Positions 21,449-22,548 of a DNA stretch of 64,000 nucleotides are shown here, one piece after another. This stretch comes from Thermodesulfobacteriota bacterium. GTDB lineage: Bacteria > Desulfobacterota_D > UBA1144 > Nemesobacterales > Mycalebacteriaceae. The notes beneath the pieces are model-generated. The model was not told the DNA's origin, did no database searches, and saw nothing but the letters and a program-made list of their open reading frames with translations. The stretch lies in NCBI GenBank assembly GCA_965205855.1, contig OZ242184.1, forward strand, positions 32,001 through 96,000, read 5' to 3'. The position numbers and the translations under genes are program-made. Within the stretch, counting starts at the first letter, position 1. Each line of letters starts with the position of its first letter.

Positions 21449-21571
21449 AGTCTTTTCTCCATTAATAGGCGCGGGGTCGCACTAGAAACTGAAAGACTAT
21501 ACTAAATAGGCACGGAAAAAGGTCAAGAAGCGGAAAGATGCTGAAGTGTTCGCACGGTTTGTTTTATAATG

Positions 21572-21706
21572 GCCTTGTTCACTACTCAACAGGAAACCCT
21601 TTGTCGGGTCTCCTGCTAAATAAAAGAATCGATACGGCGTGGATTAATTACCCGCGCTGGGAAATAAGCGGGAACTTCTTGACATCTGTTGAGTAGTGAA
21701 CAAGGC
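21572..21706 (+). ncRNA. Structured leader RNA, copy C
   Basis: Perfect 21-bp inverted repeat (21572-21592 / 21686-21706) enclosing the 27-nt core at 21596-21622. TATAAT at 21565-21570. Confidence 0.82.
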
Positions 21707-21739
21707 TTGGCACCTGTTACCAGTAGCCAATGTCAACAG

Positions 21740-22548
21740 ATGTTCAAAAACCAGACAATCTGGACTGGCGACAACCTTCCGATTATGAGGGGATTTGAGG
21801 ATAACTGCATTGACTTGGTATACCTTGATCCGTTCCCATAGGAAGCGAAGCCGCTGGCGCGGCGTTCAAAGATACTTGGACACTGGACGATGTGGATATC
21901 GCATGGCACGACGAGATAGGCGCAAAATCTCCCGCTCTCTACTCGGTAATAGAAACCGCCGGACATGTCTACGAAAACGGAATGAAATCATATCTGATTA
22001 TGATGGCAATCCGTTTGCTTGAAATGAGACGGATACTGAAAGAAACGGGAAGCGTCTATCTGCATTGCGACCCAACAGCGAGCCACTACTTGAAATTGCT
22101 TATGGACGCGGTTTTTGGAAAAAACCGTTGGAAAAACGAAATAATTTGGCACTACAACACAGGTGGCGCAACTAAAAAACGGTTTAGCAAAAAAACATGA
22201 CACAATCCTTTTCTATTTCTCAAAAGGAACAAAGGCTTTTAACACTCAAAGAGAACCCTACAGAGAAGAAAACACAAACCATTTCAGAGAAACAGATGAA
22301 GACGGAAAAAGATACAGAATCAGGAAAGTTGCGGGGAGAAAATACATTTATTATTGAAGACAAGGGCAGAGTTTGCCATGATGCTTGGGATAGGTACCGT
22401 CAATGCTGTTGCAAAAGAACACAACGGCTACCCGACCCAAAAACCTCTTTTTTTGCTTGAGCGCATAATCAAAGGAACAAAAACAATGCAGGAAGCAAAA
22501 GCGCAGTTCCACAAAGAAACCGGACGCGCCATCAAACCCCGTCTTTAA
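21740..22548 (+). pseudogene. Fragmented N4/N6 DNA methyltransferase (beta class)
   Basis: Fragments in different frames: MFKNQTIWTGDNL...IDLVYLDP*, AAFKDTW...GSVYLHCDPTASHYLK...NEIIWHY, KKHDTILFY and YPTQKP..LLERII. The DPPF motif is broken and no FxGxG motif is present. Confidence 0.88.

Follow-up and report, generated by a model that had tools for sequence, protein, structure and literature searches.

A multi-copy structured leader RNA of a Thermodesulfobacteriota bacterium and its probable relic in front of a decayed DNA methyltransferase gene

The closest described RNA, sRNA-Xcc1 (Rfam family RF02221), is found on the integrons, phages and islands of a wide range of Proteobacteria. It precedes symE in the commonest integron cassette of Xanthomonas (bioRxiv 10.1101/2025.06.18.660453) and an ORF6N gene in APSE phages (bioRxiv 10.1101/2020.03.17.996009), and Xylella has seven homologues, all transcribed, some of them enriched in outer-membrane vesicles (PMC12189769). 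Here we describe a family of leader RNAs found in a 64-kb window (assembly GCA_965205855.1, contig OZ242184.1, positions 32,001 to 96,000) of the 1.40-Mb genome of a Thermodesulfobacteriota bacterium, and in particular its copy C, situated in front of a decayed DNA methyltransferase gene. We regard it as fairly probable that the element is the mRNA 5′ leader of a multi-copy structured family acting in cis, copy C being a relic. The finding points to a real RNA family, while the function in cis is what we infer from the sequences. By sequence, the family appears to be a 5′-extended, promoter-proximal leader version, a distant kin of sRNA-Xcc1 with the kinship below the threshold.

Other described systems resemble the family in part. 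The c-di-GMP-I riboswitch (RF01051) is present in many copies per genome, upstream of varied secreted-protein genes, and the resemblance consists in multi-copy leaders before surface-protein genes. Unlike in that system, the best RF01051 match in the genome has only 16.5 bits, the cut-off being 35, and is located elsewhere, and no GGDEF domain was found in the genome, which is 98% complete; hence c-di-GMP was rejected as a candidate ligand. Sequestor/anti-sequestor leaders (riboswitch platforms, RNA thermometers) have the same three-strand logic, with a 5′ strand paired to a middle strand that could otherwise cover the start. Unlike these, the leader family has a long closing stem, P1, that exceeds the alternative in stability by about 25 kcal/mol, and start masking is seen in only about a third of its members. 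The leader stems of E. coli pnp and rnc, which are processed by RNase III, likewise form a long near-perfect duplex at the mRNA 5′ end, and an RNase III-like gene is present here; unlike the leader family, the pnp and rnc leaders lack a conserved multi-helix core. Retron msr-msd and Y RNAs, which have a long closing stem, were also considered and rejected, as the leader has too short an inner part and neither reverse transcriptase nor Rsr genes are among its neighbours, although no search for reverse transcriptases was made.

Structure, spread and genomic context of the leader family

The leaders are 130–160 nt long, with P1 of 17–21 bp. In the alignment of 46 sequences, 92.5% of cells are paired, as against 66.1% in shuffles, and for P1 the fraction is 98.1%, these percentages being somewhat inflated, which counts against our reading, by the fitting of the alignment to the model. 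Thirty of the 34 pairs vary on both sides, and all 18 pairs of P1 covary with compensatory changes; none of 500 shuffles and no slid control comes near the family values of pairing and covariation. The top pairs of an all-versus-all mutual-information screen are all situated within P1, P2 and P3, and the screen yielded no tertiary or pseudoknot pair outside the modelled helices. Among 770 cells of P1, there are 87 G-U or U-G against 3 A-C or C-A combinations, hence selection acts on RNA of this strand and not on DNA. The core nucleotides are near-invariant across phyla and the stems covary, and compensatory changes are seen also in the orthologues of copy A in three genomes. The leader is a genuine structured RNA family with paralogues. 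Its covariation is as strong as in established riboswitches, and the family is not in Rfam as such.

The genome contains five copies, three of them inside the window (Table 1). A DNA search of the whole genome yielded a paralogue of copy C at window positions 5812–5965 (minus strand), 71% identical, with the same TATAAT and core and a different yet complementary stem. A BLAST-type search of relatives reached the genus only, and covariance models, seeded from 4 and then from 22 sequences (R1 and R2), reached beyond; a MAFFT alignment was dropped, as short variants were misaligned. Every one of the six genomes of the genus has leader copies, as do 36 of 101 in the order (E ≤ 0.01; f1 5/5, f8 26/37, f3 3/5, f2 1/33, f7 0/15) and 33 of 120 in the phylum (E ≤ 1e-4), with the best E-values of homologues down to 1e-28 and independent members scoring up to 106 bits. 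The matching public records are labelled ‘Thermodesulfobacteriota bacterium’ and ‘Candidatus Dadabacteria’. Beyond the phylum, matches come from metagenome-assembled genomes (MAGs) of Alphaproteobacteria, Parvibaculaceae (a tandem pair), the PS1 clade, Versatilivoraceae, ‘Deltaproteobacteria’ and Poribacteria, each match being followed by a protein with a signal-like N-terminus, as assessed by eye. The next proteins after the matches in a Phycisphaeraceae MAG and a gammaproteobacterial MAG have no such N-terminus. Overall, a quarter of the phylum carries the leader, each genome having between one and seven copies, almost exclusively in front of exported-protein genes.

In the Parvibaculaceae MAG (L085:4441-4737), the tandem leaders are 36 nt apart and precede one gene for a staphylococcal-nuclease-like secreted protein. 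A homologous nuclease in the PS1-clade MAG (L113) has a single leader.

Promoter matches at no fewer than 9 of 12 consensus positions are seen at 37 of the 46 copies. The −10 box ends 3–4 nt before the first alignment column in 32 of the 46, about 6–7 nt before the first P1 pair, and this spacing suggests that transcription starts at the foot of P1. A start codon is situated between −5 and +45 nt from the model’s end at 37 copies out of 46, and in the three window copies there is no terminator-like site between the leader and the gene. A crude rule, which asks for a hydrophobic uncharged stretch within residues 1–40, marks 34 of 37 downstream proteins as apparently exported, 14 of these having a lipobox, compared with 186 of 1116 in a rough gene call of the genome; as the family members are not independent, the binomial P-value of this enrichment is indicative only. 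The three clear exceptions are methyltransferases. Among 34 downstream proteins, Pfam recognises seven families (N6_N4_Mtase, RTX repeats, OMP beta-barrel, HNH and HNH_5 with two members each, DUF2085 and Endonuclease_7 with one each) with no common function, and the Pfam scan of the product of copy A’s gene gave no match. The neighbours of copies A and B are ordinary chromosomal genes; copy C is situated between an hdr-like gene and leuA, and no integrase search was made.

Copy C and the methyltransferase pseudogene

The sequence-only reading held copy C to be an intact leader with a perfect 21-bp P1. The stem is as described, since its two arms of 21 nt (21572–21592 and 21686–21706) are 100% complementary, and it is the sole inverted repeat of at least 16 nt within 400 nt in the whole window. 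The folding z-score of the 201-nt region around it is −7.3, with none of 200 shuffles equally stable, and the full-length RNA (−75.4 kcal/mol) has P1 formed and the ATG unpaired. P1, P2 and P3 with their covariation, the conserved core and the tail are all found in copy C (21572–21576 pair with the conserved tail AAGGC, unpaired otherwise). It scores 148.1 bits with model R1 and 104 bits with R2, figures that are partly circular, as copy C is a seed member of both. P4 holds an inserted hairpin (21635–21642 with 21652–21659). The portion in common with sRNA-Xcc1 is 21611–21673, comprising P3, the A-rich loop and P4.

‘Undamaged’, however, the leader is not. Copy C is changed at 4 of the 33 columns with at least 85% conservation, the base of P4 being AUC instead of CCC and the tail CUU instead of CCC; among the other 45 members, two exceed this deviation and three equal it. 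The core is weakened, with AAUAAAAGAAUC where the family has AAUAYAAGACCC. The family trait of a sigma-70 promoter ending 6–7 nt before P1 is lost, though TATAAT is kept: the −35 hexamer has 3 matches of 6, the DNA upstream is native intergenic sequence, and a promoter scan of the window found copies A and B and not copy C. The 52-aa open reading frame (ORF) at 21538–21696 was considered as coding and rejected: P1 is hypervariable and the loop lengths vary by non-multiples of three.

Table 1. Coordinates of the leader copies, the parts of copy C and the adjacent segment. Window positions, except where genome positions are indicated.
Feature	Position	Strand	Remarks
Copy A of the leader	5797–5955	−	promoter TTGACT-18-TATAAT at 5988–5959; before gene of 211-aa signal-peptide protein, 5140–5775 (−)
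Copy B of the leader	8194–8324	+	promoter TTGACA-17-TATTTT at 8161–8189; before 122-aa lipoprotein gene, 8338–8706
Copy C of the leader (model span)	21574–21730	+	covariance-model match
Fourth and fifth leader copies	genome 350373–350502, 652475–652608		covariance-model matches
−10 box TATAAT, copy C	21565–21570	+	bases 1–3 native intergenic, bases 4–6 from inserted segment; alignment with G003 empty site
P1 5′ arm, copy C	21572–21592	+	21 nt, perfect pairing; family covariation
P2 hairpin, copy C	21595–21610	+	AACCC/GGGUC, loop UUUGUC; A-C mismatch at base
P3, A-rich internal loop and P4, copy C	21611–21673	+	P3 = 21611–21617 with 21667–21673
J3/1 joining strand, copy C	21674–21685	+	21679–21685 = 5′ half of anti-AUG sequence
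P1 3′ arm, copy C	21686–21706	+	21686–21692 also used by anti-AUG helix
Conserved tail and P5 hairpin, copy C	21707–21730	+	21707–21711/21726–21730, 21714–21716/21721–21723
Anti-AUG target, copy C	21733–21747	+	contains start codon 21740–21742
Pseudogene of beta-class N4/N6 DNA methyltransferase (PF01555)	21740–22487	+	frame changes, stops; ends after YPTQKP motif
Leader and pseudogene segment, ~920 bp	21568–22487	+	ends ± ~2 nt; AT/ATG microhomology, 2–3 nt

The statement that the gene carries at least four lesions is borne out by tblastn with two intact homologues. About nine codons are gone, with a frame change and a TAG, at ~21832–21840; a TGA at 22197–22199 is accompanied by another frame change; at least one further shift of frame occurs before 22411; and the pseudogene, cut after the YPTQKP motif, lacks the homologues’ C-terminal part. 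Contigs from two further studies have no differences from the window (X4 over 21645–22239, X5 over 21653–21846 and 21860–22241), hence an error in a single assembly does not account for the first two lesions. As the contigs of four runs are all identical to the window, they are uninformative about strain variation, and two of the runs, X1 and X2, may be where this DNA came from.

The comparison of orthologous loci, proposed earlier as a check of RNA conservation against gene decay, was run; in three relatives the locus has neither the RNA nor the gene. LeuA homologues could be placed in each of the six genomes of the genus, and in G003, G002 and G001 the hdr-like gene is separated from leuA by no more than a short spacer. 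Sequence homology with the window extends to 21567 in G003, 21529 in G002 and 21449 in G001, and at the empty site of G003 ...TTATG runs directly into CAGGAAGC..., that is, window positions 21563–21567 are joined to 22489–22496. The leader model with filters off has no match at E < 0.1 in the five other leuA loci of the genus. Among the four collinear genomes, the ~920-bp segment is found in the present one (G000) alone. Its right end truncates the methyltransferase after the YPTQKP motif, and its left end lies inside the −10 box, thus half of TATAAT is native and the family −35 box is gone.

Of the two explanations offered earlier for an unbroken RNA beside a broken gene, retention of the RNA for its own function gains no support, given that the RNA and the gene are absent together from the locus in G001–G003, that the −35 box is lost and that conserved positions are changed. 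A small mutational target suffices: with at least four lesions in ~800 nt, about 0.7 are expected in 135 nt, and by our own arithmetic an RNA of this length would stay unbroken about half the time, hence its state is unremarkable. Copy C is probably a clipped relic, a dead copy of a real structured leader RNA. It lies in a ~920-bp fragment that is confined to this lineage and lacks the family −35 box and the methyltransferase 3′ part, and its unbroken helices would be explained by small size alone. For annotation, it is a warning against taking a perfect stem beside a dead gene as a sign of retained function.

The spacer between the hdr-like gene and leuA in G002 (L251:1440-1500) contains ATGGCC ... 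AAACCC ... AAACAAT ... AAGGCC, a series resembling the G000 segment in its first bases, the P2 strand and its last bases. The G002 ‘empty’ site may therefore be a remnant of a large internal deletion, and the segment would then be older than G000. A second decayed methyltransferase locus, in G003 (L012:1501-1700, that is, G003:C1:558053-558250), has a folded leader and no promoter. The tail of this leader runs straight into the LDPPFN codons, so that the gene has lost its ribosome site and some 33 N-terminal codons. A resemblance between the conserved tail, which in other copies reads AAGGCCCGGCGCC, and the LDPPF-coding DNA (GGACCCGCC) may have guided the deletion.

Pairing with the start site and alternative explanations

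The anti-AUG pairing of copy C had been placed between 21679–21692 and 21733–21747, over the ATG at 21740–21742, and these positions are exact. When the P1 5′ arm is blocked, the minimum free energy fold consists of 21679–21682/21744–21747 (4 bp) and 21683–21692/21733–21742 (10 bp), that is, the described helix of 14 bp with one bulge, spanning the ATG. Codon 21740 was also chosen correctly as the start: the start of the intact homologues aligns one codon from it, and their Thr7 aligns to 21755. The energy of the anti-AUG duplex, −18.9 kcal/mol, is matched by one of 100 dinucleotide shuffles of the target and by none of the start regions of 36 other members, and blocking the P1 5′ arm decreases the start-site accessibility from 0.47 to 0.11, and in copy A from 0.48 to 0.09. 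On the other hand, the ‘competition’ with P1 is one-sided, as the fold with the 5′ arm withheld has −50.6 kcal/mol, compared with −75.4 kcal/mol with P1.

The claim that a start-masking sequence recurs in the family holds in part of the members. Native pairs average −13.5 kcal/mol in duplex energy, swapped ones −11.3 and shuffled targets −10.5. Twelve of the 37 members have start-site complementarity better than 95 of 100 shuffles, in seven the pairing is equalled by at most one of 36 swaps, and upon blocking the 5′ arm the start-site accessibility drops by more than 0.25 in nine, mostly of this genus, and rises in none. According to these folding models, the masking strand would be a recurrent option of the family, present in about a third of it, and not its defining mechanism. 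The intact methyltransferases had been expected to share both the start codon and the complementarity; the start codon is shared to within one codon, and the complementarity is lacking in both their leaders, L017 (G003) and L018 (G001), whose duplexes have −8.4 and −8.8 kcal/mol and are matched by 73 and 68 of 100 shuffles, respectively. No Shine-Dalgarno sequence is seen at 21740 or at the L017 and L018 starts (..GUCAAAAUGG.., ..CAACAGAUGU..). The exported-protein genes behind leaders have a strong GGAGG in almost all cases.

In a working copy, transcription would begin at the foot of P1, which would close a junction of P2 plus P3, the A-rich loop and P4, followed by the P5 hairpin and the start site of the next gene with no terminator between. 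The leader would act in cis on translation, mRNA life, or both. The P1 3′ strand together with J3/1 can pair with the start site, and the P1 5′ strand would keep both occupied, so that the default state is open and the start site closes only if the 5′ arm is removed or held. A candidate trigger is RNase III cutting in the long P1, as suggested by a 17–21-bp duplex at the 5′ end; the genome has an RNase III-like ORF with a dsrm domain in a 239-aa frame. Alternatively, the trigger could be the binding of a factor or ligand by the conserved core.

Several observations weigh against this reading. The title of Chen et al. 2011 reportedly calls sRNA-Xcc1 trans-acting. By the shuffle test, masking is missing in 25 of the 37 members, both intact methyltransferase leaders included, hence it cannot be a family-wide mechanism. 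Since P1 is favoured by ~25 kcal/mol, there is no competition within the full-length RNA, and a switch would need an outside agent. Four members from G002 (L023, L026, L028, L030) have no ORF directly downstream, and Rfam finds at these four copies only a tRNA. Finally, sRNA-Xcc1 is a discrete RNA, 88 nt by mapping of both ends, with a single Northern band of ~100 nt (PMC2996969).

Such a discrete RNA, the transcription of all seven Xylella homologues (PMC12189769), the four G002 copies and the helices retained by copy C and L012 beside dead genes would fit an independent trans-acting sRNA gene like sRNA-Xcc1, its neighbour being incidental or the RNA doing both jobs. We nevertheless consider this unlikely, given the gene start within 45 nt of the model’s end at most copies, the lack of a terminator in the window copies and the excess of exported downstream proteins, which a free-standing sRNA would not need. 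Moreover, the hypervariable P1 leaves no conserved seed region, and among the Xcc1 core-motif matches listed 65 of 81 have a ribosome site and a start 50–230 nt after the core, mostly 85–104 nt. Improbable to a similar degree is a switch sensing a ligand or a protein, in which P3, the A-rich loop and P4 would form the aptamer core and binding would shift the P1/P2 fold to an Xcc1-type fold, pairing the P2 3′ strand with the tail and freeing the P1 3′ strand to mask the start. It would account for the near-invariance of the core amid covarying stems, for many copies before varied exported-protein genes, as in second-messenger riboswitches, and for the conservation of the tail (AAGGCCCGGC) beyond the needs of P5. 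The outer helix of the RF02221 model pairs 5′ GGCCGGGGG with 3′ CCCCCGGCC, and the leader equivalent would join the P2 3′ strand to the tail, as 83.9% of cells allow. But covariation does not support this helix, 93 of 500 shuffles reaching its paired percentage and 55 of 500 its covariation score, and in the leader family the same strand pairs within P2, which covaries. Besides, the downstream genes, with one or two members per Pfam family, have no common pathway, a P1 of 17–21 bp is far longer than in known riboswitches, and c-di-GMP is an unlikely ligand in this genome, where no GGDEF domain was found.

A DNA-level element, such as a miniature transposon, a recombinase-flipped promoter or a cruciform, is very improbable. 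The perfect 21-bp inverted repeat of copy C with arms 93 bp apart, the several copies per genome and the position of copy C within a lineage-specific insertion are what such an element might show. However, the arms are hypervariable and covary from copy to copy, unlike the conserved ends of transposons, so that neither the conserved ends nor the absence of strand bias characteristic of miniature inverted-repeat transposons and invertible promoters is observed. The G-U excess indicates selection on one transcribed strand, and the compensatory changes in the orthologous copies A argue the same way. The inserted unit is not the repeat but the leader with the gene, ~920 bp with 2–3 nt of microhomology. 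As for a chance hairpin with chance complementarity, only the small size of the anti-AUG helix speaks for it, and it can be practically dismissed: by our own arithmetic ~6e-6 perfect 21-bp inverted repeats are expected within 400 nt in 64 kb, and one is seen; homologues score down to E 1e-28. The earlier argument from a third instance with a different sequence thus stands, copies A and B (Table 1) having different stems.

Two of the G002 copies without an adjacent ORF, in L023 and L026, are each followed by a similar element of ~70 nt (at L023:1730–1800, and in L026 on the minus strand, ~70–140 nt past the leader), closed by GAGUCCCC ... GGGGACUC, with the conserved interior AAUGAAC ... CCUUCGUU; it has no match in Rfam at E ≤ 0.1. 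In the vicinity of L026 there are a HicB-like ORF and IS1595-like fragments.

Relation to sRNA-Xcc1

At the gathering score, Rfam yields only three tRNAs in the whole window, and 301-nt scans of copies C and A with E up to 10 give no RF02221 match. Over the whole genome RF02221 has just two matches (30.5 and 30.3 bits, E ~0.0015), both within leader copies, and no copy in this genome reaches the gathering threshold of 53 bits. Four of the six out-of-phylum leaders match RF02221 at 28.3–36.3 bits, also below this threshold. The core stem, the A-rich loop and the ACCC/GGGG hairpin of RF02221 are present in the family consensus. The shared core is AAUACAA-N-ACCC ... GGGGAAUAA in sRNA-Xcc1 and GAAUAYAAGACCC ... 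GGGAAAUAA in the leader family, with a short hairpin; also common is a CGGG... strand complementary to the ...CCCGGC tail, and the Xcc1 model pairs these. Both occur in several copies per genome, seven in Xylella in the case of sRNA-Xcc1, and both sit upstream of a gene. Unlike sRNA-Xcc1, the leader family has a 5′ extension forming the 17–21-bp P1 and P2, starts at a sigma-70 promoter, and is chromosomal, before exported-protein genes, and not a cargo of integrons, phages and islands.

A core-motif scan yielded at least 120 stretches, of which 80 loci were examined; the matches listed include Xanthomonas, Neisseria, Pasteurellaceae, Desulfovibrionaceae and Pseudovibrio. Applied to the 80 loci with the canonical pattern, the leader model gives a strong full-length match only at L136 and L149, and most others match over the core alone, hence the long P1 with P2 is an addition of the present subfamily. 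Among the matches listed, 10 of 36 distinct canonical loci have start-site complementarity better than 95% of shuffles. Together with the distance to the start, this suggests that a leader role may fit sRNA-Xcc1 as well, and the link to the leader family suggests that sRNA-Xcc1 may be mainly a leader too. Among the sRNA-Xcc1 papers retrieved, no title or abstract treats it as a cis-acting leader.

A more speculative possibility, which we put forward as doubtful, is that the Xcc1-type core is the sensing module of a widespread, unrecognised class of cis-leaders, sRNA-Xcc1, catalogued since 2010–11 as a trans-acting small RNA, being their processed or attenuated head, and that in this phylum the 5′ extension has turned it into a dedicated means of controlling exported-protein mRNAs or of tagging them for the membrane. 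The vesicle packing of the Xylella homologues (PMC12189769) would fit an envelope-linked role.

At the canonical loci (L116–L195), the spacing between the core and the next start codon is remarkably uniform, and the recurrent downstream proteins are a family with ‘xxGYFLPEDxQLRL’ and Bro-N/ORF6N-like proteins. At several of these loci, examples being those of Neisseria, Aggregatibacter and Parvibaculum, the hairpin/J region is complementary to a stretch ending in the ribosome site.

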